Source: Eledone cirrhosa
Taxonomy: Eukaryota
Length of the DNA stretch: 64,000 bases
Direction of reading: 5' to 3'
Assembly (NCBI GenBank): GCA_964016885.1
Contig: OZ024759.1
Coordinates: 32,426,001 to 32,490,000 of the forward strand
Part shown: one piece after another, positions 5,508-62,309 of the stretch
Numbering within the stretch: the stretch's first letter is position 1
Layout of the letters: every line of letters starts with the position of its first letter
The notes under the pieces: generated by a model
Database searches by the model: none
Told to the model about the DNA's origin: nothing
Seen by the model: the letters and a program-made list of their open reading frames with translations, nothing else
Position numbers and translations under genes: made by a program

Positions 5508-5788
5508 GCATACATTTATATAAATACACATACTTATATATGTATATATATATGTGTGTGTGTGTGTGTAGATATATAGTTGGTGCTCTTAAGTTTGACA
5601 TGGCCTGAGCCTGTACTGGCCGAAATCTGTATATAAGTTATATATATACACACAAACATGTATATTTATATAGATACATATATGTATACACACTTATAAG
5701 TATATATACACACATATATATATATACATATGTGTGTGTATATATATATATATACACACATATGTGTATATATATATATATATATATA

Positions 5789-5976
5789 TTAGAAAGTGAG
5801 GGTTTTTTTACAAAATGAAAAATAACCGGTGTCCTACACGAGTGAAAGTATAAGGAAAAAAGATGAAATCGAAAATGCAACTGGAGTCTTATTTTTAAAT
5901 AAATATATATATGTATTTGGTTCCTTTACCGGTGGTTTCGCAGTTCTTCTGCTTTTCAAAAGTAGAGTTGAGATGG
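5789..5976 (+). repeat. ~190-bp repeat, inverted relative to the copy at 15702-15885
   Basis: ttagaaagtgaggg...gtagagttgagatgg is the reverse complement of ccatctcaactctac...cctcaatttctaa. Both copies abut (TA)n on their outer side. Confidence 0.85.
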
Positions 5977-6434
5977 AGGGTCTGTGGTTTTTCTCACATC
6001 TCTACGGCATAGATACATATATATGCCATAGTGTAGGCAACCCGTCTAGGAGAGCTACCACTCCGAATAAACTGGTGCAGGGTGGAGAAGCCCCCTAAGT
6101 CCAGATAAGATGACTTCTCTAGTGCTGGTGGTACGAATAAAAGCACCTAGTCCATTCTGTAAAGTGGTGCTGGTGTTAGGAAGGGCATCCAACCAGTATA
6201 TTAATGCCAAATATTATGAGCACAACATACAAATATAACAATAACTACGTAAACAGTAATAACACTAATCACAGTAGTGGGTGAGGGAGGGGGCATGCAT
6301 GTGCAGGTGCAGGCATTTGTGACCGACATCAAGCAATTGCATAACAACAACAACAATAACAACAATAATAATAATAATGATGATAATGATTTTAAATATT
6401 TTTCATTGCAGAGAAAAAGGAAAAATCAACGAAA

Positions 6435-6592
6435 GATGATACATCTCAGTGTTACCACACTTAATGTTGGCACCCTGAGATGTAGCTCTGATGAGAAAGT
6501 GGAGATGCTAGAGAGAAGACGTGGATGCATGCAAGATGTGAGATGGAGAAGTGCCTCAGCAAGACTAATCACAGGCAAGCAGCTTAGCTATA
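6435..6592 (+). mobile_element. RTE-clade LINE AP-endonuclease fragment, truncated at the giant palindrome
   Basis: IHLSVTTLNVGTLRCSSDEKVEMLERRRGCMQDVRWRSASARLI matches the RTE APE N-terminus (TLNVGT...ERR..D..C.QE.RW.G..AR). Confidence 0.7.
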
Positions 6593-8549
6593 AGAAATCA
6601 AGTAGTGGTTTACCCTTTAACTAGGTACTACTGCAGCAGTTGCCTCAAAAGGTAGATGGCATCCGTAGTACTTTTACCTGCCACAAATCCAAACTAAAGA
6701 GGTATGTAATGTTTTCTTTGATCTATACACATACATTCCATTAGATACACACTTTATGTCAACAACTCTCACACTTTGGATCTTGTGTTTATGTGGCTTT
6801 CTGGCACATCTTCACCCACTCAATATGCTTTCTTTGTAATTAAAAAAAATACACATACAAATAGTGTTACCCCTTCTAAGAAACTAAACTAAACCATCTC
6901 GACACTGTATACATACTTTCTAACTCAATTTTCTCTCTATAAACCTCATTCTGTAGATCTTTCTTTAGAGACATACATATAAAACGATATACTCTAAACT
7001 AAGAAAAATATATAAACCGTCTTCTCTATACCTTTCCTTTTTTCTTATAATAAACCTCTATACACAGCTACATTTTATTATCTTCTCTATTTCTTTCACA
7101 CGTGTCCTCTTGTATGTAGAGAGAAACCTTTGTGAGAATCGAACTCATGATTGTAAAGTCCGACAACTTTACATAGATACTTTGCTCATTGATGTCCAAT
7201 TTTTTCGGCGCATGCGTACGTTAGTAAAAATTAAATGGCCGCATGAAGAACATCATGTTTTACAACGTGAATTAAAAAAAAACTTAAAAACTTGGATTTT
7301 ACTAATTTTACGGAGGTAAAGTAAAGCTTTATTTTATGTTGATCAGTTTTATTGAAACATGTTCTGTTTATTTCCCTCCATAATGTCAGAAATAATTATT
7401 TAAACATTAGTTTTGTTTACATTCTAATGTAATACAACACCCCCTCCTAAATATTTCTTGGTCATACGAAATAGTGTATTTTTTTAATTACTATTTAAGC
7501 TGGTAAATAATATATTTCTATTTCCCTTCATGATATCTTCGTATTTTGTAATCAGAGGTTAACTGTTGATCAGTGTTAACTAGATCGATATCGCTTTAAC
7601 CTACAATCATTTATATTCTTAGTTTCTTTCGCTAGAAACTTCATTTACATTTTTAGTTTCTTTTTTCAACACTTCATCTACATTCTTTGTTTCCCTCCAG
7701 TTTTGTTTAGCTACTGCCACATTTATAGGTCATACGAAATAGAATTTAGTTTATTTTCTTTATTATTTAAATAATATATTTCTAGTTCCCTTCATGATAT
7801 CCTCGTGTTTTGTTGTAAATTCGTTTTGGAGGACTTGCTCCTGTCACACATGATGTTGGTTACTATATTCTGTTTATTAATATTAACCAGAATCTTTTGA
7901 GATTTGTCTTCTTAAACGGGGTAAATATTACACCCGTCTCGTTTTGGCCACAAAACTTAGGTTTTGTACCCATGTTTTTAGATATCATGATCGTAATCAA
8001 AGATTAACTGTTGGTCAGTGTTAACTAGATCGATATCACTTTAACCTACGTAACATAGAACTATTTACATCCTTAGTTTCTTCTCACGAAACTTTATTTA
8101 CTTTCTTCGTTCTTTTTCAACACTTCATTTACATTCTTAGTTTCTTTTTTCGTCATTGAAAAGACAACTAAGAATGTAGATGAAGTTTCTAAAGAAAGAA
8201 ACTTAGTTGTGTTTTTTTTAGACATCATCATCGTAATCAGATCGATATTATTAACCAGACCGATACCGCTTTAACTTTTAATCGACGTAACTAATGACTA
8301 TTTACATTCTACTTTATACACTTCATCTACAGTCTTAGTTTTTTTCTTTAAGAAACTTCATATACATTCTTAGTTTCCTCTATTTAAATGTTTTTATAAT
8401 AGAAGACAAAATTGGATGAATTTTATAAAGTTTAACATTCTTTTTAATGATAATGTATGTAAATGACTTTCATTTCTTTTACAGATGTCCATCCTTCAAG
8501 TCCATATGCTGTGTTGTTTGCCGTAACAAGTGGGAATGACCAGGTTTCT

Positions 8550-8962
8550 GTTAATAAAGAAAGTTTACATATTATATACGAATTGTATTCAGATTATTTT
8601 GCCAAAAATGAATAAAGAAAGTTTAGATCGTATATACGAATTGTATTCAGATTATTTTGCCAAAAACGAATAAAGAAAGTTTACATCTTGTATACGAATT
8701 GTATTCAGTTTATTTTTCCAAAAATGAATAAAGAAAGTTTACATTGTATATACGAATTGTATTCAGATTATTTTGCCAAAAATGAATAAAGTTTACATTA
8801 TTATATACGAATTGTATTCAGTTTATTTTTCTAAAAATTAATAAAGCAAGTTTACATTTTATATACGAATTGTATTCAGATTAATTTTCAAAAAATGAAT
8901 AAAGAAAGTTTACATCTTATATACGAGTTGTGTTCAGTTTATTTTTCCAAAAATGAATAAAG
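8550..8962. repeat. ~58-60-bp tandem sub-repeats in the left palindrome arm (about 7 copies; about 3 in the mirror region 9825-10000)
   Basis: Repeated aataaagaaagtttacat..tatatacgaattgtattcag.ttatttt units. Confidence 0.85.
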
Positions 8963-10455
8963 AAATCAAGAGTCAACAAGAAACTGAGAAAGACGTGCTA
9001 CAAAGAACGTAAGTGTTTATGAAGTTTCTAAATAAAGAAACTAAGAGTAAGATAAAGTTTCTTGAAAGAAACTAAGAGTTACATAAAGTTTCTTGAAAGA
9101 AACTGAGAATAATGAAGTTTCTAAATAAAGAAACTAAGAATGCTTTTGAAATTATCGAAAAAAAAATCTATGAAATAAGACCCCCTCTTTTTAATTTTTT
9201 TTTATTAAAGGGAGGTAACTCTGTAATATTTTGAAAGAATTACCTCCCTTTGAAACACCTTCGTCACCGTCGTTACCACCGTCGGCACCTTCGTAACCGT
9301 CGTCACCTTTACCGCCGCCACCTGGTGGCGGAGGAAAAGATACCGACGACGACGGTGGTGCACCACCGTCTTCGTCGGTATCTTTTCCTCCGCCACCAGG
9401 TGGCGGCGGTAAAGGTGACGACGGTTACGAAGGTGCCGACGGTGGTAACGACGGTGACGAAGGTGTTTCAAAGGGAGGTAATTCTTTCAAAATATTACAG
9501 AGTTACCTCCCTTTAATAAAAAAAATTAAAAAGAGGGGGTCTTATTTCATAGATTTTTTTTTCGATAATTTCAAAAGCATTCTTAGTTTCTTTATTTAGA
9601 AACTTCATTATTCTCAGTTTCTTTCAAGAAACTTTATGTAACTCTCAGTTTCTTTCAAGAAACTTTATGTAACTCTTAGTTTCTTTATTTAGAAACTTCA
9701 TCATTCTTAGTTTCTTTCAAGAAACTTTATCTTACTCTCAGTTTCTTTATTTAGAAACTTCATAAACACTTACGTTCTTTATAGCACGTCTTTCTCAGTT
9801 TCTTGTAGACTCTTGATTTCTTTATTCATTATTGGAAAAATGAACTGATCACAATTCGTATATAAGATGTAAACTTTATTTCTTTGTTGGAAAAATAAAC
9901 TGAACACAATTCGTATATAAGATCTAAACTTTCTTTATTCATTTTTAGAAAAATAAACTGAATACAATTCGTATATAATATGTAAACTTTCTTTATTAAC
10001 AGAAATCTGGTCATTCCCACTTGTTACGGCAAACAACAGAGCATATGGACTTGCTGGCTGGACATCTGTAAAAGAAATGAAAGTCATTTACATACATTAT
10101 CAATAAAAAGAACGTTAAACTTTATAAAATTCATCCAATTTTGTCTTTTATTATAAAATCATTTAAATAGAGGAAACTAAGAATGTAGATGAAGTGTATA
10201 AAGAAAGAAACTAGGAATGTACATGAAGTGTATAAAGAATAAATGGTTATTTGTTACGTAGATTAAAATTTAAAGCGGTATCGATCTGGTTAATAATATC
10301 GATCTGATTACGATGATGATGTCTAAAAAAAACACAACTAAGTTTCTTTAGGAACTTCATCTACATTCTTAGTTGTTTTCAATGACGAAAAAAGAAACTA
10401 AGAATGTAAATGAAGTGTTGAAAAGGAACAAAGAAAGTAAATAAAGTTTCGTGAG

Positions 10456-11235
10456 AAGAAACTAAGAATGTAAATGGTTCTATGTTACGTAGGTTAAAGT
10501 GATATCGATCTAGTTACGTAGATTAAAAGTTAAAGCTATATGGATCTGGTTAATATTTGATGACGATGATGATATCTAAAAAAAAACAACTAAGAATGTA
10601 GATAAAGTTTCTAAAGAAAGAAACTCAAAACGTATATGAAGTGTCTAAAACTAAGCATGTAAATGAGGAAAAAAGAATCTAAGAATGAAGGTTCGTAAGA
10701 AGAAACTAAGGATGTAAATGGTTCTATGTTACGTAGGTTAAAGTGATATCGATCTAGTTACGTAGATTAAAAGTTAAAGCTATATGGATCTGGTTAATAT
10801 TTGATGACGATGATGATATCTAAAAAAAAAACAACTAAGAATGTAGATAAAGTTTCTAAAGAAAGAAACTCAAAACGTATATGAAGTGTCTAAAACTAAG
10901 CATGTAAATGAGGAAATAAGAATCTAAGAATTAAGGTTCGTAAGAAGAAACTAAGGATGTAAATGGTTCTATGTTACGTAGGTTAAAGTGATATCGATCT
11001 AGTTACGTAGATTAAAAGTTAAAGCTATATGGATCTGGTTAATATTTGATGACGATGATGATATCTAAAAAAAAACAACTAAGAATGTAGATAAAGTTTC
11101 TAAAGAAAGAAACTCAAAACGTATATGAAGTGTCTAAAACTAAGCATGTAAATGAGGAAAAAAGAATCTAAGAATGAAGGTTCGTAAGAAGAAACTAAGG
11201 ATGTAAATGGTTCTATGTTACGTAGGTTAAAGTGA
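10456..11235. repeat. ~243-bp unit repeated about three times in tandem, only in the right arm
   Basis: aaatggttctatgttacgtaggttaaagtg recurs at ~10472, ~10716, ~10961 and ~11205. Confidence 0.85.
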
Positions 11236-12342
11236 AGGGAACTAGAAATATATTATTTAAATAATAAAGAAAATAAGCTAAATTCTATTTCGTATGACCT
11301 AGAAATGTGGCAGTAGCTAAACAAGACTATCGTCTAAACAAAGAATGTAGATGAAGTGTTGAAAAAAGAAACTAAAAATGTAAATGAAGTTTCTAGCGAA
11401 AGAAACTAAGAATATAAATGATTGTAGGTTAAAAGTTAAAGCGATATCGATCTAGTTAACACTGATCAACAGTTAACCTCTGATTACAAAATACGAAGAT
11501 ATCATGAAGGGAAATAGAAATATATTATTTACCAGCTTAAATAGTAATTAAAAAAATACACTATTTCGTATGACCAAGAAATATTTAGGAGGGGGGGGGG
11601 GTTGTATTACATTAGAATGTAAACAAAACTAATGTTTAAATAAGTATTTCTGACATTATGGAGGGAAATAAACAGAACATGTTTCAATAAAACTGATCAA
11701 CATAAAATAAAGCTTTACTTTACCTCCGTAAAATTAGTAAAATCCAAGTTTTTAAGGGTTTTTTTTAATTCACGTTGTAAAACATGATGTTCTTCATGCG
11801 GCCATTTAATTTTTACTAACGTACGCATGCGCTGAAAAAATTGGACATCAATGCGCAAAGTATCTATGTAAAGTTGTCGGACTTTACAATCATGAGTTCG
11901 ATTCTCACAAAGGTTTCTCTCTACATACAAGAGGACACGTGTGAAAGAAATAGAGAAGATAATAAAATGTAGCTGTGTATAGAGGTTTATTATAAGAAAA
12001 AAGGAAAGGTATAGAGAAGACGGTTTATATATTTTTCTTAGTTTAGAGTATATAGTTTATATGTATGTCTCTAAAGAAAGATCTACAGAATGAGGTTTAT
12101 AGAGAGAAATTTGAGTTAGAAAGTATGTATACAGTGTCGAGATGGTTTAGTTTAGTTTCTTAGAAGGGGTAACACTATTTGTATGTGTATATTTTTTAAT
12201 TACAAAGAAAGCATGTTGAGTGGGTGAAGATGTGCCAGAAAGCCACATAAACACAAGATGCAAAGTGTGAGAGTTGTTGACATAAAGTGTGTATCTAATG
12301 GAATGTATGTGTATAGATCAAAGAAAACATTACATACCTCTT

Positions 12343-12446
12343 TAGTTTGGATTTGTGGCAGGTAAAAGTACTACGGATGCCATCTACCTTTTGAGGCAAC
12401 TGCTGCAGTAGTACCTAGTTAAAGGGTAAACCACTACTTGATTTCT
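12343..12446 (+). mobile_element. RTE reverse-transcriptase fragment at the right tip of the palindrome (mirror copy at 6593-6696, minus)
   Basis: Translates as FGFVAGKSTTDAIYLLRQLLQ*YLVKG, matching the non-LTR RT motif QFGF.PG.STTDAIF.LRQL.EKY. Confidence 0.75.
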
Positions 12447-13020
12447 CTATTTATTTTTGTCAAAATAAACTGAACATGATTTGTATATAAAATGTAACCT
12501 TTTTTTATTAACAGAAACTTCGCCATTCCCACTTGTTACGACAAACAACACAGCATATGACCTTGAAGGCTGGACATCGGTAAAAGGAAATGAAAGTCAT
12601 TTACATACGTTATCAATAAAAAGAATATTAAACTTTATTAAATTCTTCCTATTTTGTCTTTTATTATATATAGATGTAAATAGAGCAAACAAGAAAACCT
12701 TTTCCTACATCGAGGGAGGTAACTAAACTAAGTATGTAAATGAAGTTTAATGTAAATCAAGTTTCTAAAGAAAGGAAACTAAGAATGGAAATGACGTGTT
12801 GAAAACGAACAAAGAAAGTAAATGAAGTTTCGTAAGAGGAATCTAAATCGTTCTATGCTACGTAGGTTAAAATGATATCGATGTAGTTAATACTGACCAA
12901 CAGTTAATCTTTGATTACGATGATGATATCTAAAACAACATTTCGTTCGAAACTAGACGGGGATAATATTGGCTATGATCAAAGACGACAGATCTCATAA
13001 GATTCTGGTTAATATTAAAA
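12447..13020 (+). repeat. Third, more diverged partial copy of the palindrome-arm sequence
   Basis: cattcccacttgttacgacaaacaacacagcatatg... matches ~10012-10100. gttaatactgaccaacagttaatctttgattacg...gattctggttaatattaa matches the reverse complement of ~7880-8025. Confidence 0.8.
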
Positions 13021-13289
13021 TGTGCTAGAAAGTCACATAAAACTACTGAGATTTCAGTTTGACAATCGCCACAGACAGACGAATGTGAGAAAGTTCTCCA
13101 ACCCAAGTTAACTAGGAATCTTTAAAATTCTTCCCACCGAAGTTATTACTGGATCTACCAACTCATAACATTATAATATTATAAAATTAAATCAAAAATT
13201 GTTTTCGGTTCTTATATATTTGATATATATTTTCCTTATCGAGCCCTCTTTAGATTTTAGTCTTCAATTTTATTATTATTACTATATAC

Positions 13290-13468
<179 letters not shown>

Positions 13469-15701: not shown

Positions 15702-15878
15702 CCATCTCAACTCTACTTTTGAAAAGCAGAAGAACTGCGAAACCGGTAAAGGAACCAAATAAATATATATATTTTTTAAATAAGACTCCAGTTGCATTTT
15801 CGATTTCATCTTTTTTACTTATACTTTCACTCGTGTAGGATACCTCGGTTATTTTTCATTTTGTAAAAAAAACCTCAA

Positions 15879-15885
<7 letters not shown>
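15702..15885 (-). repeat. Inverted copy of 5789-5976
   Basis: Reverse-complement match, followed by (TA)n. Confidence 0.85.
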
Positions 15886-15951
<66 letters not shown>

Positions 15952-16131
15952 TATATAGTTAGGAAAGCAGAAAATTGCTTATTGTAATCCAGTTTCTTGG
16001 ACAGTTCCAACGTACGGTTAGGGGTAACTCCACAAGTATAGCGAAATAAGATTTCGCTTACCAATGAAACAGCCGTAAATACCTGGATAAAATCCTTTTT
16101 TTAATGCTTACTTCTGTTTTCTCTTTTATTC

Positions 16132-16202
<71 letters not shown>

Positions 16203-16205
<3 letters not shown>

Positions 16206-19200
16206 GAAATGGACTGCAGAGGTGAAATTAAAAGCCAGCGAAACTCGTCAAATATGGAACTAGAGGTTTTGAGCAAGGGGTGGAACCTGGTTTATGGGTC
16301 ACCACCAAGCAAAGGTATTGTGGAGACCCTGAAGAACCATAGCTTTCTGAGGACTCTGGCACAGAAAGAAAGAAAAAGAAAAGAAATCGAGAAGTCCTAT
16401 GTCTTCATAGCGCTACATATGGCGATGCTAAGCCGTGTCCTCAAGGAGGAGAAAAACTGGGAGAGAGAAAAAGGAAAAGAAAAAGAAAAGGAAGCAAGCA
16501 CAAGCACGGACCTGAAAGAAAATGAGATACCCGCCGCCACAGTCAGGGAAGGCAGGCCGAGCAACTAACAAACAAACGGTAACGGTGAGAAGCCAAATCA
16601 CATTCCGAAAGAAAACCAAGTAGAGAGGGACCAGTGAACAACTGCAAAGGAATAACAGAAGGCGCCGAGACACTGGGAGCAAGAAAACCCAGGTAACGTG
16701 CAAATTCTTCAGGAACAGGACCTGCTGGCATGGAGAAACAGGGACAGGCTGCAGATTCGCTCACCCCAGTCCCCAAGCGAACTATGCCCATCCTACTCAC
16801 ACAACATGCCCAAGCCAAAACCAAAACCGATGCAAGCTGCCCCAGAAGTATGCGGATGTCGCGCGTGCCACGTTAACAAGGAGAAGGCACGCATATGCCG
16901 ATGAGATACAGATGGCAGCAGCAGAGCAAAAATATTTTTCAGTGATTGCAGAGAAGATTGTGGGACAGCTGACCTGGCTGCATCGTTTTCAGAACCAGGG
17001 TCACTCACACCAGCACTCGAGACCACCACAATTATGGGACCCATAGTAGCCGCCGCTGACACCAAGCCAGGTGTCATACCGACAACTATTGCTTGCACCC
17101 CCAAAAGTCACACCAGTGCTGCTGCTGAATGCTAGAGGCCTGGTGAAACTCACTAACATGAGTAAAATTTCCTACCTTGGAGACTTAGCCATAAGCAATC
17201 AAGCATTATGTATGGCACTAACCGAAACGCACCTGACAAGCAGTATAGCAGATGCGGAAATACATATACCAAAATATACTCTATTTTGTTCGGACAGGAA
17301 GGAGAGAACTCGTGGTGGGGTTTCTCTGTATATCCGTGAAGATGTCACACCAATTGTACTGTTGACACATTCAAACTCAGTCTGTGACACACTGATAGTA
17401 CATTTGAAGCAACTAAAGACAGTAATATGTGTCACATATCGACCGCCCGATGCCCCCAGTCATGAGGGTAAATTTGAGGATAGCCTCAGTAGGATAGAAG
17501 AGGTCCTTGACAACCTGGACCAGGGTCTCAACATTCTACTGCTGGGAGACTTCAACCTGCCAAAGGTCAAATGGCCTGAGGGCCACCTCCTCCCTGGAAT
17601 GACATCAATAGAACAGAGACAGACGGTGACTTTGCTGGCCCTCTCACACAGGCTGTTCATGGAACAAGCAGTACTCTTCCCAACAAGAGGCGATAATGTC
17701 CTAGATCTCTGTTTTACGAACAACGAAGTGCTCATCCACAATGTAAAGGTCATACCAACATTTCTCTCGGATCATAACCTAGTAGAACTAATGATATGTG
17801 GTCCGGGAGAACCAACAGAGACACAACCATCAAGAAGCACTGAGACCTTATCCAGCCTTAACTTCTACAAGGCTAACTGGAAAAAGATCAAGAGGGAAAT
17901 ACGGAAGCAAATATGGAGCGACAACATCACCACACAAGACACCAACACACAATTTCAACACTTCATGACAACGATACAAACTATATACCAAACGTTTGTC
18001 CCGGAGAAAAAGGCCAACAAACACAAAAATCTTATTCCCAGAAATAGGAAAATCCTTATGCGACGAAGAACCAGGCTCTCAAACCAGTTGAATGCACAAG
18101 AAAACAAAAACAAGAAGGAATCCTATTTGAAACGTGCACTACTTGACATCGAGATTGCCCTCAAACTTTCCCATGAAAATGAGAGGGCAAAGAAAGAAAG
18201 CAAGGCCATAGAAAATATTAAAACAAACCCTAAGGCCTTCTTTAAATTTGCAAAAGGGACTGCCTCGGTACACTGCAAGATTGGGACACTCTTCCATAAA
18301 GACAATAAGTGAAATACTGAACGAACAGTACAAAAGTGTGTTCACATGGCCACTGAGGCACATCCAAATAACAAAGCCAGAGGATTTCTTTGATGCCACA
18401 ACACTCCGTGAAGAAATGGCGACCATCAACCACATAGACATAACGGAGGAGGATGTGGTATACGCCATAGATGAAATTAGAACAGACTCAGCTGCTGGAC
18501 CTGATGGATTCCCAGCAGTTCTCTTAAAAACATGTAAACGTGCCTTAGCAACTCCACTGACGACGCTCTTCAGAAGCTCCTTGCTAGCGGTAGACTACCC
18601 AGGGAGCTGAAAGGCACAATATGCCCTATCCATAAAGGAGGTAGCAGAGCGGGGGCCAAAAACAATAGGCCAGTCTCCCTGACGTCACATATCAGTAAGG
18701 TCATGGAGCGAATCATCAGAAAGAAATTGATCACTTTCCTTGAGGAAAATGACCGCCTGACTTAAGGCAATCCAGCGAAGCTACACCAAGATGATTGCGG
18801 CGATGAAGAAGATAAGCTACTGGGAGAGGCTAAAAGAACTGAACCTCTATTCCTTGGAACGAAGACGGGAGAGATACGCAGTGATCTACATGTGGAAAAT
18901 CCTAGAGGTACTAGCACCAAACTTTGGCACTGGGAGCTGGACCAACACCCAAACAGGACGTCACTGTGTGGTGCCAAAGGTTCCGTCTTCTACATCTCGA
19001 ATAAGGAGCAGATATTGCAATAGCCTGGGGTTCAAGGGCCCTCAACTCTTCAACAAGCTGTCGAGGGATCTGAGAGATCTACATGGTGTTGATGTGGATG
19101 TTTTCAAGAAACATCTCGACACCTTCCTATCCAGGATACCGGATGAGCCCGCAGCAAGGCACGAGGGAAACCTAAGGGTAGCAGCAACGAACTCCCTCTT

Positions 19201-19294
19201 GCACCAGTGGCCAACTAATACAGGCTGGAGATAACATGTGTAGCAACAAGGGCGGTGCCCCAGCATGGCTTCAGCTGGATGGCTGGAACCGGTA
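16203..19294 (+). mobile_element. CR1-group LINE inserted in (TA)n: degenerate ORF1, AP endonuclease, partial RT with the core deleted, and the C-terminal region
   Basis: ORF 17071..18312 has APE motifs LLNARGL, ALTETHL, RGGVSLYI, TYRPP, LLGDFNLP, PTRGDNVLDLCFTN and SDHNLV. Further motifs: AAGPDGFP, RPVSLTSHISKVMERII, and the CR1-type tail ERLKELNLYSLERRRER. TA arrays on both sides. Confidence 0.9.
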
Positions 19295-24065: not shown

Positions 24066-24475
24066 TTGTTGGGATTCAACAAGCTTAAAAATTGTTATAA
24101 CTGATATAAAGCACTCAACAGATAGTGAAGTAAATATACAATATATTAATAAATGGAAACTTTATAAAACCATAATTATTTTATTATATATATTTCAAGG
24201 GCGACCAAGGTAAATTATGGTGCGCTTTCATCAGATAAAATACAGATTTCAACCTCAACGGTTGAAATTCGCTGGATAGTCAGATAGACTATCCAGAGAA
24301 TTTCAACTGTTGAGGTTGTCTTTTTTCCGGGTATGTCAATATTTATTTATAAAACAAATCTGTATTTTATCTGATGAAAGCGCACCACAATTTACCTTGG
24401 TCGCCCTTGAAATATATATAATAAAATAATTATGGTTTTATAAATATAGTTTCCATTTATTAATATATTGTATAT
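24066..24475. mobile_element. Fold-back element (~340-bp palindrome + tail) with hammerhead-like cores on both strands
   Basis: CTGATGA at 24371 (+) and its mirror tcatcag at 24228-24234. Stem I TATTTTAT/ATAAAATA; GAAA at 24409. Nested central hairpin. Same family as 43553-43980. Confidence 0.7.
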
Positions 24476-28535: not shown

Positions 28536-28591
28536 ACAAGATAGGTTTCAACAGAGTTTGTCGACTAAAGTCTAAATTTGACTAAACTTAC

Positions 28592-29252
28592 CACAGATCA
28601 CAACATTTTGATGCAATTCTTCAGCCTGCTGCAAAGATGCAGACATCCATTCCATCTGGTCTCTGCCAATGGCACCATTGTATCCAACAATCATGGAACA
28701 GGAATAATCGAGATCTTCTGCGCTATTCGTGTCTTCATTTTGGTTAAATTTAATAAACATTTCCTTGGCCAATCTGTAATTTTTTCCCAACGTGTCGATA
28801 ACATTGAGGTTGTAACAATCAAGAATAAGGATCTTTAATGCCTTGTGTGGCACCAAAGAATAATATCCTTTACCTGGAACTTTCTCACAGCTGCTATTAA
28901 AAGAACCATTTAATGTGGAAGAATTTAGAAGTTCTTCATGAGGGAAATTATAGAATTCATGGTTACCCCAAATGTGATAGACATTTCTGGGAAATTTTGA
29001 GAATAATGTTTTTATACATTCTAATGCTGTGTCTCTCTGGCCATTTCGTCTGTTGTAGCCGTCCAAGAGGTCACCAAGTTGAAGGATAAATGACACTTCA
29101 TGAGCAGAATTCATCCAATGATTAATGGCGGTGTTTGTCTGTTCCAGGGAACCACGGAAGTATCGTTTGTGGAGTTTGTGATAGTCATAGCCATCTTCTT
29201 TGTCAGCATACTGTATATCAGTGATGAGGCCAAACGTCAGGATGGCAGCCAT
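28592..29252 (-). CDS. ADPRM: ADPRM, first coding exon (spliced CDS 966 nt, 321 aa)
   Basis: MAAILTFGLITDIQYADKEDG...LQLGDLLDG...WGNHEFYNF...YNGAIGRDQMEW carries the ADPRM hallmarks DxQYAD, GDxxDG and GNHE. Acceptor tttcag upstream of the ATG at 29261; donor G|GTAAG at 28592; phase 1 joins exon 2 in frame. Confidence 0.92.
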
Positions 29253-29354
29253 ATTGGATTCTGAAACCAGATAGATAAGTTGAAAAATAGATTGACAAGA
29301 AAGAATAGATTGTAAAATAAGAAAATATATAAAAAACATGGGAAAGGAAAGGGC

Positions 29355-29670
29355 AAGGCTGCTCAGCTGTTAATATGCATAAGGTAAGTATATACGTTCA
29401 ACAATCTGGCAGGAAGGTATGTTGCTGACGATAGCTAATAAGCTTGAAACTGGTACAGCGTTCCTTTGTCAGTGTTGAACAAACGAGCAACGATGGTTGC
29501 TAGACACTAAGGCTTAATACAGGATGCTTGTTTACAAACACACTGAGCATTATAATAAATGTTCGGTGAATCCATACGTACATATATATATGTGTGCATG
29601 TATGTATATATATATACATACTACTGTACGTCTGTATACATATATGTATGTACGTGTACATACTTATATA
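29355..29670 (+). mobile_element. Second copy of the 15.2-15.7-kb hammerhead-bearing repeat (motif 29420-29460)
   Basis: gttgCTGACGAtAGCTaataAGCTtGAAACtggTAcagcg, with flanking homology to 15335-15660. Confidence 0.7.
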
Positions 29671-31090: not shown

Positions 31091-31710
31091 GGAGAGGGCC
31101 CTCCGCTGAGATTTTATCATTTGCGGTCAATTTATAGAACACTCCTTAGAATTTCTGTCGAAAATATTTATTTTTCCTCCTTTTTTCTCTCATTCTGACC
31201 CCCGAATATGCCGTTAGTTGAAAGTACACGGGGGAAAAAGGAGGAAAAATAATTATTCCCTATTGAAATTGCAAGAGGTGTCCTTCTAAAATAATATTCC
31301 TGTATCTAAACAAACATACATTAACAATGCACCTAAACATACATAGAGTATGTCCCCGTTCTGGGTTTTTCCCAGTCAGTATACCGCTAACACTTCTGGT
31401 TGTCACATGAAGCAGTCAAACCGAAACTTCAAAGTCATTGTCACTTTTGCCATTCAGAAAATAAAAAAAATTTACACTCTACCTACACGTATTGAGTACT
31501 TCTTTAGTCAGTGTTTCAATGTTTTAAGTATTATGACATTTTAAACACCCATTTTTATTATATATATACACAGGGTGTCCTAAAAGTGTATATACACAGG
31601 TTGTGCATTCTAATAAATATTGCCTGTACAAGTAATGAAAGTATGTATACAATTTTTGGGGACACCCAGTATATATATATGTATGGAGATTTCTTACGAA
31701 TGATATTCTT

Positions 31711-31783
<73 letters not shown>

Positions 31784-31989
31784 CACACACATCCGTAAGA
31801 ATATCATTCGTAATATATCCCCAGGAATCATTTCTTGGGAATGAAACAGTTCTAGTCCTGTAGAAGTCATTTCTCTAATAAAATGAATATAACTACGTTC
31901 TACTAACGTATTAAGTCCTTTCTTTAAGTGTGGTCACCTCCCGATATACATCGTGATTCTATGTATTATGTGTGTGTTTACATATATAT

Positions 31990-34475: not shown

Positions 34476-35857
34476 ATGGAGGAAAACACAGAACGGTATA
34501 AAGACTTATCATCAAAGAGGCAGAAGAAGTCTTCTTGTGGTGACGGTGGGGATTTACCAAAAGAACGGGACCAGGTATTGCAAACTAATAATTGTTTCTA
34601 CTTTTAGTACATGTGTGTACTCGCATACAAGTCACACCTTCATTTTCCAAACATTTACAATAATGTGCTATACCCTTTGAATTGAGGTTTTCTGGGTTCA
34701 GATATGTTGCTTGTTGGGCGAAAATCGATTAAATTGATCCCCAGTGTGTTACTGATACTTTATTTTATCGATCCCGAAATGATGAAAGGCAAAGTTGCCC
34801 TCTAATGATGTTGTTGCTGTTATTTAGGCTCGGGTTGAACAGTGTTAACCTGTGGTCGGACCCCTAGCCTGTCAGATATTTCGGCCACACTCCACCAGAG
34901 GCGTAACTAGAGTATAGCAAGCATGGCATGTGGACTTTATGGGTATCTGAAAGATGGGTGTCAAATTTATGGGCAGGGACGCAATTTCTTTGCTTCTCAT
35001 AGGCGTTAATTTCCCTAGTTACGCCTCTGTTCCCCACCACAGCACTGGTCAACAATACAGTACAGTGAAGATATAAATTAGTTTAGCATTTTATATAGGG
35101 GGGGGGGGAGTCTTAACGTTTCAGGTATTAGTTCGTCATAAGAAGATAGAATGAAAGAAATAGAAAGATAGAGAAGATGAGGTTGAGAAATGGGTGTGTC
35201 TGTGTACGGATATCTGATCGAGTACATACACACATGCATACATACATACACACATGCATACATACATACATGCATACATACATACATACACACATGCATA
35301 CATACACACATGCATACATACATACACACATGCATACATACATACACACATGCATACATGCATGCATGCATGCATACATACATACATACATACATACATA
35401 CATACATACATACATACATACACACGCATACATACACACATGCATACATACATACATACATACATACATATACATATGATGGCTGCAACTCAATTTAGAG
35501 TAATGCTATCGTTTGAAACTTAAGCATGAGCATCAGCAACTTGGCTTTTTTGTCATGCTAGGGGCTTGCTTGTGGCCAGCCATGCCATGCATCGAAAAAA
35601 ATGTCACATATCAAGCGATGCCTGAGCTTGAAGCTTTTTTAAGTGAGGAAAGGCTTATATATATATCATCATCATCATCATCGTTTAACGTCCATCTTCC
35701 ACGCTGGACGTTAAACGATGATGATGATGATGATGATGATATATATATAAGCCTTTCCTCACTTAAAAAAGCTTCAAGCTCAGGCATCGCTTGATATGTG
35801 ACATTTTTTTCGATGCATGGCATGGCTGGCCACAAGCAAGCCCCTAGCATGACAAAA

Positions 35858-35888
<31 letters not shown>

Positions 35889-39200: not shown

Positions 39201-41138
39201 TATTGTGCCTTTATTAAAACACAAAGAATGTTCTTTATAAATCTTTAATTTTTCAAATAATGCCTAGTTTAACCCTTTCATTACCTTATTTTTAATGAAA
39301 AACTCTGCCTATAGTTTGCAACTAATATTTTAAATAAAAACAATATTTGGAGGGATTTAGTAAACGAGAAAATCTTTTCATTTCATCGCTAAGCTGGTTT
39401 TGGAACTTAACAAAGGTTCGTACATAAAATTATGAGGGAAGGTTTTTTGATAAAACAACAAAGGATCTTACATGAAATTATGGTGGAAGGTTTTTAGATA
39501 AATATAAACACTTTAAAACAAAGAACTTTGTATCATAAAGCCAAGGGTTGTTTCAGAAGGTTTGGTATCAAAAGTGTTAAAACCCAAGACTGTTCCTCAT
39601 TATTCCCTTATTTTTCAGACAATGCCATCCTTGTGCAGTCCCGTTTCATCTTAATGGAGGGCATGCTTCTTTTCTTCATAGCGTTGGCTCTTCTCTGTTT
39701 TCTAAAGTTCCACTATATGCCTGAACAGTGAGTTCTTATCCTCTTTTGTTTTCATTTGTTTTAGTCTTTTATTGGTTTCAGTCTTTAGACTGTGGCCACG
39801 CTGGTGCATTGCCTTGATTTAATTGATCATATCAGCCCCAGTACTTATTTTATCCATTTCTATTTATCTTTTAAAGATGTTATAGTATATAACAATAGTA
39901 GTAATGATAATAATTTCTAATTTTGGCACAATATATATATCACCTTGATCACCTTGACCAACCAGTCTGTCGAGCGTCCATTCAGCGCCACTGGTCACAG
40001 CACGCCATCCATTCCTCTCTGGATCGTGCTTTCCCCATTCATGTATTCCGAATCGTATTCTTAAAATCGTAACTCCACCCTCGTGGAGGCCTTCCGAGTG
40101 ATCGTTTCCGCTCGCGCGGGTACCACTCGGCAACTGCGCGGGCCCACCGATTATCGGTGAACCGGGCGACGTGTCCAGCCCATCTGAACTTGCTGCGCAT
40201 CTGGCGGGTCTCGCACAGCCCTAACACATGGCACCTGATCTTCTTCTTCTCCTCCATTAGGTGGTTCAGTCCTTGCCCCTCTGCCAAAGACCTGCAGTTG
40301 TAGGTGCATATGGCAAGGTTAGTCCTGTTCCTTGGCGGCCTTTGGGAACCTGTATATATATATATATATATAAATATATATACAAATGAATATATGATAG
40401 GGATAAACACTAATACAAGTATACAAGTGTTTGCATTGCAAATGACCAATGACCAATTCAAACACTTGTATACTTGTATCAGTGTTTATCCCTATCATAT
40501 ATTCATTTGTATTACACGGCTCAGAAATATCCCTTTCTTTGAGCTATTTAATTGTAAAAGACTATTTGAGTTTATAACTCTATATATAATATATATATAT
40601 ATATCATCATCATCATCATCATCGTTTAACGTCCGTGTTCCACGCTTGCATGGGTTTGGACGGGAATTTTCCCACTTGAGGCAAGATTGGTTGTCTTGCT
40701 CAGGACTGTCTGGCGGGTTTTCTACGGCTGGATGCCCTTCCTAACACCAACCACGTTTACAGTGTGGACTGGGAGGTTTTTACCGTGTTGCCTACACGGC
40801 CACATTACAGCGTGGACTGTGGGTTTTTTTTATCATGACACCTACACGACCTCATTTGTTTCGGACTGGATGTTGTGGTACCAACATAACTTTACATCAA
40901 AATATATATATATATCGAAATATAATATATATATATATATATGAAAAGAGTCAGGACCCCGACGGCTGAGCTCTGGCCGTTTTGACAGCTTGATCCAAAC
41001 TGTTCGGATCTAGCTGTTGAAACAGCCGGAGCTCAGCTGTCGGGGACCTGAATCTTTTCATATTACACACTCTACTACCCCAAGCATTGAGTACTCTGGT
41101 GAGTTATGGTCCACCTGGTTTTTACCACATCCTATCTG

Positions 41139-41664: not shown

Positions 41665-44003
41665 TCCAGGGAGTTCAATCCCCAGTGGTGGCTCTGGCTG
41701 TCTCTTACTGGTCTTTCATTGATGTGTTCCTTCAGGTAGGTACTCATAACTCTCTCCCCCACCTCCTCCCCACCACCCCTCCGTCTCACCACTCCTCCCC
41801 ACCACCCCTCCGTCTCCCCACTCCTCCCCACCACCCTCTACTCCCTATCAGTCACAGCTGGTCTGCTGGATAAAACCCACCTTGGACCACAAAATCCAGT
41901 CTAGTCCATTCCATGATGGTATGGCCTTTAATGGTGATGGTGAGAATGAAGATGAGTTAAGAATGATGGTTGTAGTGGTGGTGGTGGTGGTGGTACGTCA
42001 GCTGATGGTGGTGGTGGTGGTGGTGGTGGTGGTGGTACGACAGCTGATGGTGGTTGTGGTGGTGGTGGTGATGGTGGTGGTACGACAGCTGATGGTGGTG
42101 GTGGTGGTACGACAGCTGATGGTGGTTGTGGTGGTGGTGGTGATGGTGGTGGTACGACAGCTGATGGTGGTTGTGGTGGTGGTGGTGATGGTGGTGGTAC
42201 GACAGCTGATGGTGGTTGTGGTGGTGGTGGTGGTGGTACAACAGATGATGATGGTGGTTGTGGTGGTGGTGGTGGTGGTGGTACAACAGATGATGATGGT
42301 GGTTGTGGTGGTGGTGGTGGTGGTACGATAGCTGATGGTGGTGGTGGTGGTTGTAGTGATGGTACAACAGCTGATGGTGGTGGTGGTGGTAATGGTGGTG
42401 GTGGTGGTTGTGGTTGTGGTGGTGGTGGTGGTAGTTGTGGTGGTACAATAGCTGATGGTGCGAAGATAGTGACTGATGATGATGGTGTTGGTGGTGATAG
42501 TGATGAGGAGACAAATGATGACTATGATGATGGTGAGAATGTTACAGACATGATAATAGTGATGTGATTCTTAGCAGCCTCTCGTCGCTCGGGTTGCACT
42601 CCGCCGTTGGGGAGTGGCCCGATTGACGCGCAGAGTACTGAGGCCCTTTTCTACATGCTGTTTTAACCATAAGATGACGCCATCCCACTGGCTGGGCGGG
42701 CAGGCCGGTACCTCTTCAGTTTAGCTAGGGTTTGAACTCTAGAAGATGATGAATCATCTCTAGGACCAATAGTCTGATACCTGTGTAGCATGGTAAAACC
42801 TGCCAGGACATTGAGTCCCGCTACCATAGCTATCAGACAGCCAGGGTCACCCGTGCGCCACTTTTGAGGCACTGAAGTAGGATTTTGCAGAAGAATAGTG
42901 ATGTAACGATAATTATGATAACTAAATTTTAAATGTCTCTGATTCTCTGTTCTAAAATCAATAATTATCTTTGATTTTTCAGCATTAAATATATTGGTTT
43001 GATGACATTCCTGCTGGTGGTGTTGTTAATGGCTAAAGACTATTGGATAATGTTGGCAGACATCCTTAAATCTGATGTAAGTTGGTCTTGGGTTGTTTGG
43101 TGGTGGAGCTGTGGCATAGTCCAAAAAAAAAAAGTTCAAAGTCTGTCTCACACCCAGAAATTCATCAGGCCAGTGCTTATCCTGGTTTCCATAGCGTGAA
43201 GCGGTGAGACTATAAGACTTCCCCCTGGACAGAACAACAGTCTATCACAGGGTTAAAGTCTGCTCACACCCAGAAGTTCATTAGGGTGGTGCTTATCCTC
43301 GGTTTCTTTGGCATTAAGTAACAAAGAGTACCACACTCTTCCCCCCTGGACAGGACACAAACCCATCACAGGTTTAAACCCACAAATATTGCTGGTACTG
43401 TATGTGTCTCTGTGTCTCTGTATATAAATATCTGGATGTGTGTACACGTATGTGTATGTATAAGTGTGTATTTATACATGTGTCTGTGTATTTAAGTGTT
43501 GGTGTATCTATCTATATATATATATATATATATGCAAAAGTTTTATTTAAGATTGTTGGGTTACAACGAGTAAATATTTTATAACTGATATAAAAGCACT
43601 CAACAGTTTCTGGAGTAGGTTTACGATATTAAACAAATGGAAACTATATTTATAAAACCATATTTATTTCGTTATATATATTTCAGGGATATCATATTAA
43701 AAATATGGTATGCCTTCCTCAGACAAAATACAATACATAAGCTGTTTTATAAATAATGTTTGACATACCTTATAAATAATGCAACTTCCATTTAAAAATC
43801 AACTTTTTAAATGGAAGTTGCATTATTTACAAGGTATGTCAAAAATTATTTATAAAACAGCTTATGTATTGTATTTTGTCTGAGGAAGGCATACCATATT
43901 TTTAATATGATATCCCTGAAATATATATAACGAAATAAATATGGTTTTATAAATATAGTTTCCATTTGTTTAATATCGTATATATATATATATATATTAA
44001 CTA

Positions 44004-61788: not shown

Positions 61789-62190
61789 GATACACACACA
61801 CACATATATATACACACAGATACACACACACACATATATATATATATATACACACAGATACACACACACATATATATATACACACAGATATTTCCTCTGC
61901 TGAAGCATAATATAACATAAAACAATACAGACATTATAAAATAAACTCCAACTCCAGTCCAACGTTAACATTTTTCATCTTTTAAAGCTTTATTTATAAT
62001 AAATACTATTTAATAAAAACACTAACTTGAACAAATAATAGTTTGTTATTTGTTATTATATATTTCTTATATATGTATATATGTATATATGTTTATATAT
62101 AAATGTATATGTTCACATGATCATCATCATCATCATCATCACCATTTTACGTCCGTTCGTCCACTTTAGCATGGGTTAGACGGGTTTTAT

Positions 62191-62309
62191 GCTTACAGCA
62201 CCTAGGGTTCCCAAGTGGTCACCCATCTAAGTACTAACTAGGCTTGACGTTGCTTAACTTCGGTGATCGGACGAGAACCAGTGTTTTCAGCATGATATGG
62301 CCATTGTTT
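62191..62309 (-). pseudogene. Full-length, diverged 5S rRNA copy fused to an RTE 3' tail
   Basis: Minus strand: ...ggccatatcatgctgaaaacactggttctcgtccgatcaccgaagttaagcaacgtcaagcctagttagtacttagatgggtgaccacttgggaaccctaggtgctgtaagc, matching the 5S consensus. Confidence 0.85.

Follow-up and report, generated by a model that had tools for sequence, protein, structure and literature searches.

Background

The rDNA palindrome of Tetrahymena forms by inverted amplification seeded by short inverted repeats. In yeast, in the part of the ODIRA literature drawn on here (PMC4689423), closely spaced inverted repeats give rise to hairpin-ended linear molecules, inverted dimers and re-integration; such repeats end up in the middle of a long palindrome by way of a hairpin-ended intermediate, and the arms later undergo asymmetric deletions at short repeats. 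Stable inverted junctions in that system retained loops of at least 17 bp, and those with loops of 2-4 bases rearranged within about 100 generations. Among transposons, Tetris (PMC4079207) and the two-TIR and extended-TIR copies of Galileo (PMC3573991) are, in the sections of these accounts cited here, multi-copy and non-coding, with kilobase-long inverted arms of modular and unequal tandem repeats. Their arms are extended with neighbouring sequence, Galileo inverted repeats lengthening by recruitment of adjacent sequence (PMC3573991), and copies exchange sequence with one another.

We analysed a palindrome in a 64,000-bp window of the Eledone cirrhosa genome (GCA_964016885.1, contig OZ024759.1, 32,426,001 to 32,490,000; all positions below are those of this window). 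It shares each of the listed features with Tetris and Galileo, as far as the cited sections go, but has no target duplication of 7-10 bp, no middle domain and no element-like termini. It resembles the ODIRA products in both the origin of the centre and the asymmetric deletions; however, the events in the cited part of PMC4689423 are single-locus events with stable loops of at least 17 bp, whereas here one and the same loop-less centre is found in numerous copies of a dispersed repeat. The non-autonomous Helentrons (HINEs) of oyster, as presented in the cited part of PMC7492417, have in common with it internal tandem arrays, short inverted repeats, GTC-rich runs, the lack of a target duplication and one weakly similar 17-bp motif; their 5' and 3' modules differ, which makes them asymmetric, whereas here the whole element is a palindrome in which no 3' module was found. 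Lastly, V(D)J signal joints and Transib-type ends (in the parts of PMC6620893 and PMC4411706 used) have a precise head-to-head GTG/CAC junction like the present one. Yet the palindrome shows no RSS-like heptamer, no transposase and no free CAC ends (among the 18 of 66 loose ends listed), and other copies of its family have several GTG/CAC junctions in a row.

Results

The centre of the palindrome lies between positions 9360 and 9361, with zero spacer, and reads GTG/CAC (9358-9363). The left arm (6593-9360, minus strand) is 2,768 bp long and the right arm (9361-12446, plus strand) 3,086 bp, confirming the originally predicted lengths of about 2.77 and 3.09 kb and the absence of a spacer. The 14-mers of this region that also occur on its own reverse complement number 3,633, against at most 11 in 100 two-base-block shuffles. 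The 5.85-kb mirror-image stretch without a central gap is real. Its symmetry is first broken at +/-11 from the centre (9350 C versus 9371 T), and the arms do not mirror each other throughout, as had been supposed: the segment 7795-8021 (minus strand, by sequence comparison) occurs only in the left arm, and about 10516-11232 only in the right.

The centre is occupied by a GC-rich core (9256-9465) of four alternating inverted 37-bp half-units (9286-9322, 9324-9360, 9361-9397, 9399-9435) with a 30-bp partial unit on each side; the C-rich strand of each half-unit reads CACC...CCGCCACC. GC content reaches 62% in 9301-9400, so that the earlier description of the arms as AT-rich does not extend to the core. 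The folding z-score is -6.68 for 9361-9600, and a hairpin with a 16-bp stem and a 13-nt loop (9207-9251, mirrored at 9470-9514) flanks the core. This layout is the reverse of that of the usual foldback transposon, the most symmetric part being a GC-rich central hairpin. Unlike the foldback transposons in the sections cited above, the palindrome has a centre that is both its most symmetric and its family-conserved part, and that is itself an array of inverted GC-rich units.

Imperfect, nested GC-rich hairpins sit at the axis and AT-rich iterated sites flank them. This arrangement would suit a hairpin-ended virus or linear plasmid that had integrated as a concatemer, the palindrome being its junction, in line with the hairpin-ended element first proposed. 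That reading found no coding or database support and is extremely improbable. Pfam gave no family above cut-off in the 34 scanned of the region's 43 frames of at least 32 aa, no replication or capsid gene was found in the arms, three sequence patterns had 0 matches in viral contigs, and there was no match in 50,697 phage records, a set that covers animal viruses poorly; moreover, the arms extend into host retroelement relics. Inversion of a Penelope-like retroelement was also considered and found no support: Rfam returned only sub-threshold miRNA hairpin matches and no hammerhead ribozyme, and the Pfam scan of the region frames showed no GIY-YIG or RT coding domain.

Between the core and the outer arms lie tandem arrays of unequal copy number, as the original prediction of ~30- and ~60-bp sub-repeats and a right-only ~243-bp triplication had it. 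A 31-bp array is present in 3.4 copies on the left (9034-9139) and 4.9 on the right (9598-9748); a 58-bp array in 7.2 copies on the left (8553-8965) and 3.2 on the right (9817-9997). The right arm alone has a 244-bp array of 3.3 copies (10440-11235, plus strand), the units of which are identical at 242-244 of 244/245 positions and only about 72% alike to the left mid-arm. The 31-bp units are small dyads of AGAAACT and its complement. There are 46 exact dyad sites of this type between 7541 and 11500, a density of 11.6 per kb that compares with 0.07 per kb outside 6301-13400.

The substitutions between the arms are not simply scattered over the unique parts, as had been thought, but uneven: 1 of 282 sites differs in the core, 40 of 791 in the mid-arm and 15 of 1,198 in the outer arms (0.4%, about 5% and 1.1-1.5%, respectively). 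Fisher tests give p = 8e-5 for core versus mid-arm, 8e-7 for outer versus mid-arm and 0.33 for core versus outer. A third, older partial copy of arm sequence directly adjoins the right arm in the same orientation (12437-13018, plus strand), with 85-87% identity in the first 255 bp. The copy opens with 10 bp (CTTGATTTCT, also at 9812-9821) that are at once the last 10 bp of the arm, and its part 12892-13018 is 76% alike to 7877-8019 of the left-only segment. Compared with this copy, the two arms have 4 and 8 private substitutions among 253 sites, so that the two arms have aged separately.

The outer 1.2 kb of the arms has a different character. The outer left arm (6593-7794, minus strand) is 97.4% identical to the outer right arm (11233-12446, plus strand), which meets the 244-bp array through a 3-bp microhomology, TGA, at 11233. 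Beyond about 7540 the outer left arm is poor in the family dyad motif, and it contains a LINE relic and a SINE-like relic; for these reasons the outer arm is likely captured host DNA. At the outer end, the relic is of reverse transcriptase (12346-12446, plus strand; mirrored at about 6593-6693, minus strand): when only 1 kb was searched, tblastn matched the RT-bearing protein P0026 to 12346-12423 (46% identity over 26 aa, E = 4.6e-4), a match absent from the whole-window search. A short stretch at 7137-7170 (plus strand, mirrored near 11903) is, by eye, weakly similar to the B-box region in SINE-like repeats of the window, of which those at 25027 and 33694 were used for comparison. Outside the left arm, a decayed LINE AP-endonuclease fragment (6403-6594, plus strand; tblastn matches to 6403-6609), which we take to be RTE-type, is supported by 23 protein matches at E<=0.001, PF03372 being present in 12 of the 15 scanned; it halts where the left arm starts, with a 2-bp overlap. 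The same window holds a small fold-back with captured unique flank at 35546-35859.

The ends of the arms bear directly on whether the palindrome is a conventional non-autonomous foldback transposon of Mutator or P type, with modular inverted repeats of about 3 kb, no middle domain and ends at 6593 and 12446 or decayed. Both arms finish at the same mirrored base, the sequence is multi-copy, and long arms of tandem modules in unequal numbers are as in the cited sections on Tetris and Galileo. Nevertheless, no target-site duplication is present: no direct repeat longer than 4 bp occurs within about 25 bp of the arm ends, only the 4-mers CTAT and ATAA being common to 6571-6596 and 12443-12470, against 8-10 bp in Tetris and 7 bp in Galileo in those sections. 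The ends fall in a reverse-transcriptase relic, no element-like termini were found at them, and what follows on the right is again family sequence, with 10 bp in common with the end of the arm. We regard this reading as quite unlikely. Of the original suggestion of an undescribed foldback-like element, the architecture stands; the missing target duplication and termini, and a symmetry that peaks at the centre, do not agree with it.

Contigs from public runs were compared with 445 bp of the central region (8966-9410). Runs X1, X2 and X3 gave 104, 101 and 115 matching records, respectively, with 85-100% identity; these cover all 30 bins and spread over four identity classes, the listed pieces being 62-383 nt long. 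The three runs are one sample, possibly the assembly's source or a sister species, and the best run contained only 0.24 of the window's sequence words; with family evidence from this one sample, the "private" states discussed here could be population differences. The palindrome is a member of a non-coding repeat family with multiple copies, which answers the single-copy question raised at the outset. Record 16 of X2 (depth 24.5) aligns without gaps across the centre (9307-9395), thereby spanning it as the original prediction had asked of independent sequence, albeit in a sample that may be the assembly's own source; it is the one bridging piece among the 24 of 331 listed. Its loose end carries a second GTG/CAC centre, and an X3 loose end at 9285 leads to a further head-to-head junction. 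No joints are listed in the contig alignments, and five RAD reads of run X5 fell outside the core.

The +/-11 mismatch is itself a family state, C at 9350 accounting for 41-64% of depth with no variant listed at 9371, and a further mismatch at +/-6 is found in most family depth (81-100%). Since contigs cover and bridge the centre, one of them carrying a second centre, the centre has been inherited as a module of the family, differing among copies in its number of half-units, and is not a one-off break. The inherited mismatches at +/-6 and +/-11 show that no fresh hairpin exactly at 9360/9361 re-created the centre of this copy. Local homogenisation is seen in letters that both arms have in common but that the family contigs lack or carry only as a minority (G at 8997, the other letter having 63-85%; C at 9143, the other letter having 100%), and in the joint lack of an extra C after 9236 that 65-76% of family depth has; variants at 9017 and 9096, which may derive from other sub-repeat units, were left uncounted.

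These comparisons leave little room for an assembly or library artefact, whether a fold-back chimera or the false joining of arms that belong to two different family copies. The family is multi-copy and no read was aligned across the outer junctions. However, the palindrome is not a simple read chimera, because both arms carry private substitutions relative to the older third copy; the arrays are unequal, the centre is asymmetric in the same way as in the family contigs, and the arms jointly differ from family states. We consider an artefact very improbable. A one-off inverted duplication, induced by a break in ordinary repeat-rich DNA and giving the centre no special role, would account for the host relics in both arms, the microhomology joins and the lack of a target duplication, and has a small example at 35546-35859. 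It is largely refuted for the centre by the multi-copy contigs that share this centre, its inherited mismatches and its extra junctions, and three divergence levels do not fit a single event. As an account of the whole palindrome it is very unlikely; the duplication originally suggested probably holds for the outer 1.2 kb of each arm.

The GTG/CAC junction raises another explanation. The superfamilies Transib, Chapaev and CACTA start with CAC, and the palindrome could be a DNA transposon turned inside out: the centre would be a precise head-to-head fusion of two such ends, comparable to a V(D)J signal joint, the sub-repeats subterminal transposase sites, and the junction would later have been amplified within a larger unit. 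CACC starts all four half-units, and the centre has the highest symmetry, as expected of fused termini; signal ends do join precisely head-to-head and can re-integrate, as the cited part of PMC6620893 describes. Yet a trinucleotide join of this kind could also arise by chance in a CACC-rich core. From the placement of contigs across the centre we infer that they supply at least 36-59% of the depth at 9350, so that the fused state is common and not a rare by-product; no loose end lies at 9360/9361 among the 18 of 66 listed, although overlaps of 30 bp may escape alignment. In addition, the first seven bases, CACCACC, differ from the RSS heptamer, a single joint leaves the extra centres of other copies unexplained, and no transposase or other mobilising enzyme was found in the 106 window frames scanned. 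We judge this origin unlikely.

A derivative of a Helentron or HINE, in which an HUH rolling-circle element with tandem repeats and captured host DNA had its hairpin and GTC-rich microsatellite module inverted and duplicated during strand-displacement replication, is also a quite unlikely candidate. The lack of a target duplication, the captured relics and the internal arrays are Helitron traits according to the cited part of PMC7492417; the left module of the oyster elements there has likenesses in an inverted repeat of 11 bp, spaced by 1 nt, and in CGTC-rich runs, and a 17-bp stretch of the flanking hairpin agrees with the oyster CL8 central repeats at 14 positions in a comparison made by eye. 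Hairpins and CGTC-rich runs are present, but by eye their order fits the HINE 5' module only partly, and the succession subTIR, IR, microsatellite, repeats, 3' subTIR and palindrome is absent in either orientation. The repeat units, of 31, 58 and 244 bp, compare with mostly 140-180 bp in HINEs, oyster arrays gave 0 matches to the 14-mer taken from the window itself, and the palindrome is symmetric, with no separate 3' subTIR or stem-loop module seen by eye.

The core also carries a divergent pair of putative CTCF sites. The human consensus for CTCF that PMC6746451 quotes has just two exact matches in the 64-kb window, both in the core and each at the apex of a half-hairpin: 9315-9328 on the minus strand at left and 9393-9406 on the plus strand at right. 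When a core half was shuffled 20,000 times, an exact match arose 0 times with dinucleotides kept and, in another 20,000 shuffles, 8 times with trinucleotides kept, the motif having been noticed after the fact; since it is half-palindromic, a CACC-rich hairpin apex is predisposed to match it. No family variant is listed over 9309-9338, though core depth is highest there.

Discussion

We favour, with about even confidence, the view that the palindrome belongs to a dispersed repeat family in which fold-back copying and joining by microhomology start from the GC-rich core of alternating inverted units of about 37 bp. Where a break or a stalled fork exposed one strand, the core would snap back into a hairpin; synthesis primed by this hairpin would then run outward along the arm, building or repairing the mirror image. 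In the present copy, synthesis may have continued into neighbouring host DNA, with its LINE and SINE-like relics, before the free end was joined through microhomologies of 2 bp (left end), 10 bp (right end) and 3 bp (at 11233). Repeated repair of cruciforms or hairpins could keep the inner 280 bp near-identical, while the mid-arms would drift or exchange with other copies. Copies may spread non-autonomously as hairpin-ended or inverted-dimer fragments, and the dense arm dyads are putative binding sites for a trans-acting protein. Against this view weigh the inherited mismatches at +/-6 and +/-11, the instability of 2-4-base loops in yeast and the lack of a mobilising enzyme among the 106 window frames scanned.

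A bolder possibility, which we hold to be quite improbable, is a selfish DNA defined by its centre and not by its ends, which would multiply as hairpin-primed inverted dimers, grow its arms into host DNA wherever it newly inserts and plant divergent putative CTCF sites as chromatin boundaries. CTCF-like motifs have been reported at cephalopod domain boundaries and loop anchors. If the sites are bound, a mobile palindrome would be linked to boundary turnover; if such a selfish DNA exists, ready-made boundaries would be spreading through a large invertebrate genome. Should copies prove to have fixed ends and target duplications, the family would be a new foldback family of the ordinary kind.

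Palindromes that span several kilobases and lack a loop are, as a rule, unstable. The one described here has grown old where it lies, in a region that bears genes, and other members of the family have its centre too. The family could show whether short inverted repeats within a repeat drive inverted duplication of host DNA, and it offers many natural replicates of how perfect-centre palindromes form, homogenise and are tolerated in an animal germline.

Structure of the palindrome

The two arms, at positions 6593 to 9360 (left) and 9361 to 12446 (right), meet at 9360/9361 with zero spacer, and 3,633 14-mers in the palindrome are matched on the opposite strand, a number that did not exceed 11 in any of 100 shuffles. 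The loop-less palindrome of the original prediction is thus borne out, as are its sub-repeats of about 30 and 60 bp in unequal numbers and its array of about 243 bp on the right only: we identified a 31-bp sub-repeat (3.4 copies left, 4.9 right), a 58-bp sub-repeat (7.2 left, 3.2 right) and a 244-bp array of 3.3 copies confined to the right arm. The description of the arms as AT-rich mirror images holds in part, having missed a GC-rich core (9256 to 9465) and a segment found only in the left arm (7795 to 8021). Arm sequence recurs a third time, in an older copy (12437 to 13018) that adjoins the right end and had likewise gone unnoticed. The palindrome is real, has aged and lacks a loop; its layout is that of a foldback element turned inside out, and its family is apparently undescribed. 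No account of it appeared among the papers listed in our literature searches, and an entry in Repbase or Dfam is possible.

The core consists of four alternating inverted 37-bp half-units, each reading CACC...CCGCCACC on the C-rich strand, and is flanked on either side by a hairpin with a 16-bp stem. The first 240 bases of one arm exhibit a folding z of -6.68. A dyad motif, AGAAACT with its complement, occurs at 46 exact sites in 7541 to 11500 (11.6 per kb versus 0.07 per kb elsewhere) and at one site in 11500 to 12436. No frame of the palindrome region reached the Pfam cut-off (34 of the 43 frames of at least 32 aa scanned), and scanning 106 frames revealed neither a transposase nor a Rep nor a recombinase. 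A 100-codon open frame rich in proline, glycine and aspartate crosses the centre (9297 to 9596, forward strand); it has no Pfam match and is probably incidental to the GC-rich units. Rfam gave only sub-threshold matches on the region, including eight miRNA matches that reflect generic hairpins, and no tRNA was found. The gathering score was met solely by one 5S rRNA copy, a full-length match of 89.6 bits at 62190 to 62308 on the reverse strand.

Arm ends and flanking sequences

A reverse-transcriptase relic makes up the last ~100 bp at the outer end of each arm (46% over 26 aa; E = 4.6e-4 when the search was confined to 1 kb), with a weak SINE-like relic further inside the arm. On the left, the palindrome is flanked by a LINE endonuclease relic that extends 2 bp into the arm; homologues of this endonuclease relic were absent in a first search and recovered by a profile-free search of the whole library. 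Taken alone, the two short relics match no Pfam family. The right-arm end and the start of the third copy have 10 bp in common, and the junction of the right outer arm with the 244-bp array exhibits a 3-bp microhomology. No direct repeats longer than 4 bp flank the palindrome ends. Two candidate target duplications, a 4-bp CTAT and an imperfect 5-bp repeat, were dropped as offset and at chance level. A 304-bp TTAA-flanked Kolobok-type core was also rejected, because contigs of the family from public reads cross that junction (run X2, record 14, 9112 to 9307).

In its build the palindrome is like Tetris, for which parts of PMC4079207 describe modular arms, a middle domain and 8-10-bp duplications. 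We did not class it as a foldback element because it lacks such a target duplication. The undescribed fold-back element of the original prediction therefore stands as to architecture and falls as to target duplication, the direct repeats being of 4 bp at most; a plain foldback transposon is quite unlikely.

The window is eukaryotic and rich in microsatellites, with genes split by introns; judged solely by its SINE and LINE motifs, it looks octopus-like. The nearest exon-like Pfam match lies at 28575, with a protein O-mannosyltransferase gene beyond it; the palindrome is therefore dispersed rather than part of a satellite block. The frame at 28575 to 29369 (reverse strand, 265 aa) exhibits a calcineurin-like phosphoesterase domain (PF00149), and the O-mannosyltransferase comprises four exon-like frames (PF02366, PF16192) in 38702 to 59421 on the forward strand. 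A broken LINE at 16068 to 19234 (forward strand) retains an AP-endonuclease ORF (PF14529, PF03372), an upstream CCCH-like frame and a C-terminal piece; its reverse-transcriptase core seems mostly missing. An inverted pair of ~260 bp (90%), at 5717 to 5976 and 15702 to 15957, brackets the large palindrome and probably represents two copies of a dispersed repeat.

Smaller palindromes are also present. An AT-rich one of 359 bp (43622 to 43980) is 97.5% self-complementary, has a loop of a few bases and ends at a TA run; with its 70% relative at 24143 to 24466 it likely forms a separate palindromic MITE-like family. A 314-bp fold-back at 35546 to 35859, with a loop of ~10 nt and within a common repeat tail, mirrors ~110 bp of flank having almost no further match in the window, and looks like a one-off snap-back duplication with captured flank. 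Two short palindromes lie at 40380 to 40512 (133 bp, ~25-nt loop) and 31684 to 31823 (140 bp, around a TA run).

A repeat family in public reads

A search of public runs with positions 6300 to 13200 listed seven runs, four of which contain part of the region (shares 0.24, 0.17, 0.17 and 0.06), all from one study; none of the seven listed is an RNA run holding the region. Contigs were aligned over 8966 to 9410 for X1, X2 and X3, three runs of one sample with short contigs, and for X5, a reduced-representation (RAD) run that gave five partial reads, none on the core, an absence that carries no weight for such a library. X1, X2 and X3 contributed 104, 101 and 115 contigs in four identity classes, spanning all 30 bins (for X1, 31 at 99% or above, 20 at 95-99%, 38 at 90-95% and 15 below 90%), so that the sequence is not single-copy; a single copy with no relatives would have spoken against a mobile element. 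Depths of the listed contig pieces (24 of 331) extend from 3-9 up to 56-156, a spread that suggests tens of copies, summed contig depth not being equal to copy number. The inner units have a summed depth 2.5-4.3 times as high as the adjoining arm bins that we chose.

The centre is bridged by a contig of the public runs, record 16 of X2 (9307 to 9395; four differences, no gaps, depth 24.5), one of the 24 pieces listed of 331. The palindrome belongs to a multi-copy family and its centre is inherited, as seen in one sample that is possibly the assembly source or a sister species. The loose end of record 16 contains a second GTG/CAC centre, and a loose end of X3 at 9285 a further head-to-head junction (among the 18 of 66 loose ends listed); the number of half-units thus differs among copies. 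The GTG/CAC join is also the point of likeness to V(D)J signal joints (parts of PMC6620893 and PMC4411706). An inside-out transposon with CAC ends is nevertheless unlikely; no free CAC ends are seen among the same 18 of 66 loose ends. The contig alignments list no joints.

The mismatch 11 bp from the centre is a family state, C at 9350 being retained in 41-64% of depth and 9371 having no listed variant, and an additional mismatch at 6 bp occurs in 81-100% of family depth. Such inherited asymmetries count against an origin of the centre as a hairpin artefact of the library or as a hairpin newly formed exactly at 9360/9361.

Divergence between the arms

The unique parts had been thought to differ merely by scattered substitutions. 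Divergence is in fact uneven: the arms differ at 1 of 282 positions in the core block, at 8 of 175 and 32 of 616 in the mid-arm, and at 6 of 392 and 9 of 806 in the outer blocks (outer arms, 6593 to 7794 and 11233 to 12446). The mid-arm exceeds both the core (p = 8e-5) and the outer arm (p = 8e-7), with p = 0.33 for core versus outer. CpG decay between the arms, at 3 of 56 substitutions, is uninformative. A single event is therefore insufficient, and a one-off duplication is very unlikely; the break-induced inverted duplication proposed originally is, as a pure one-off, contradicted for the centre by this unevenness and by the centre shared with other copies, but likely explains the outer 1.2 kb of each arm. 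Of 253 ungapped columns compared with the third copy as outgroup, 214 are shared; private changes number 4 in the left arm, 8 in the right arm and 27 in the third copy. Both arms thus carry private changes and have aged separately, unlike a fold-back read chimera. Together with the inherited centre asymmetries, these separate changes make an artefact highly improbable.

At a few sites the arms agree with each other against the family: both have G at 8997 (another letter in 63-85% of family depth) and C at 9143 (another letter in 100%), and both lack an extra C after 9236 that is present in 65-76%. Sites 9017 and 9096 were excluded and 9308 was not relied on, as other sub-repeat units may align at these positions. 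The agreement suggests that one arm was copied from the other, unless the family consensus of the sample simply differs from that of the window organism.

Comparison with known elements and a possible origin

Three sequence-pattern scans of viral contigs each gave 0 matches, and two of GTDB gave 1 and 0, the single match being the motif itself and nothing more. Seven metagenome loci with the pattern (50-58% GC) have otherwise nothing in common with the region, and phage blastn gave no match. The earlier idea of a hairpin-ended replicon junction finds no related viral or phage sequence and no Pfam match above cut-off in the arm frames scanned, and a viral junction is extremely unlikely. Oyster HINEs resemble the palindrome in their short inverted repeats, their GTC-rich runs and one motif of weak similarity, yet they are asymmetric (parts of PMC7492417 and PMC5139131). 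A Helentron derivative is quite unlikely. The palindromes in the pertinent portion of PMC12448946 are gene-scale and unrelated.

We prefer, with evenly divided confidence, a hairpin-seeded model. The inherited core, when single-stranded, would snap back and prime synthesis outward; this would build or mend the mirror arm and, in this copy, may have continued into host DNA. Free ends would then be closed via microhomology. Cruciform repair may hold the core symmetric, the mid-arms drifting or swapping with other copies. The mode of copy movement is the weakest step of the model. In yeast, according to excerpts of PMC4689423, closely spaced inverted repeats give rise to hairpin-ended linears, inverted dimers and re-integration, with loops of at least 17 bp at stable junctions. 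In Galileo, adjacent sequence is recruited to lengthen the inverted repeats and chimeric copies form (sections of PMC3573991). Within the window itself, the fold-back at 35546 to 35859 is a small parallel.

Candidate CTCF sites in the core

The half-hairpin apexes match exactly the human CTCF consensus (as quoted in a passage of PMC6746451), at 9315 to 9328 on the reverse strand and 9393 to 9406 on the forward strand. The window has no exact match besides these two divergent sites; allowing one mismatch raises the count to four, all inside the core, versus 0.24 expected. The match, spotted post hoc and to a half-palindromic motif, was found in 0 of 20,000 dinucleotide and 8 of 20,000 trinucleotide shuffles of the core half, and in 4 of 388 hairpins made from core 8-mers, precisely those with the real stem. 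No family variants are listed over 9309 to 9338. CTCF-like motifs are described at cephalopod boundaries and loop anchors in parts of PMC9023564 and PMC13652810. Judged from sequence, and with low confidence, the core might be that of a centre-defined mobile palindrome that would spread divergent pairs of candidate CTCF sites.
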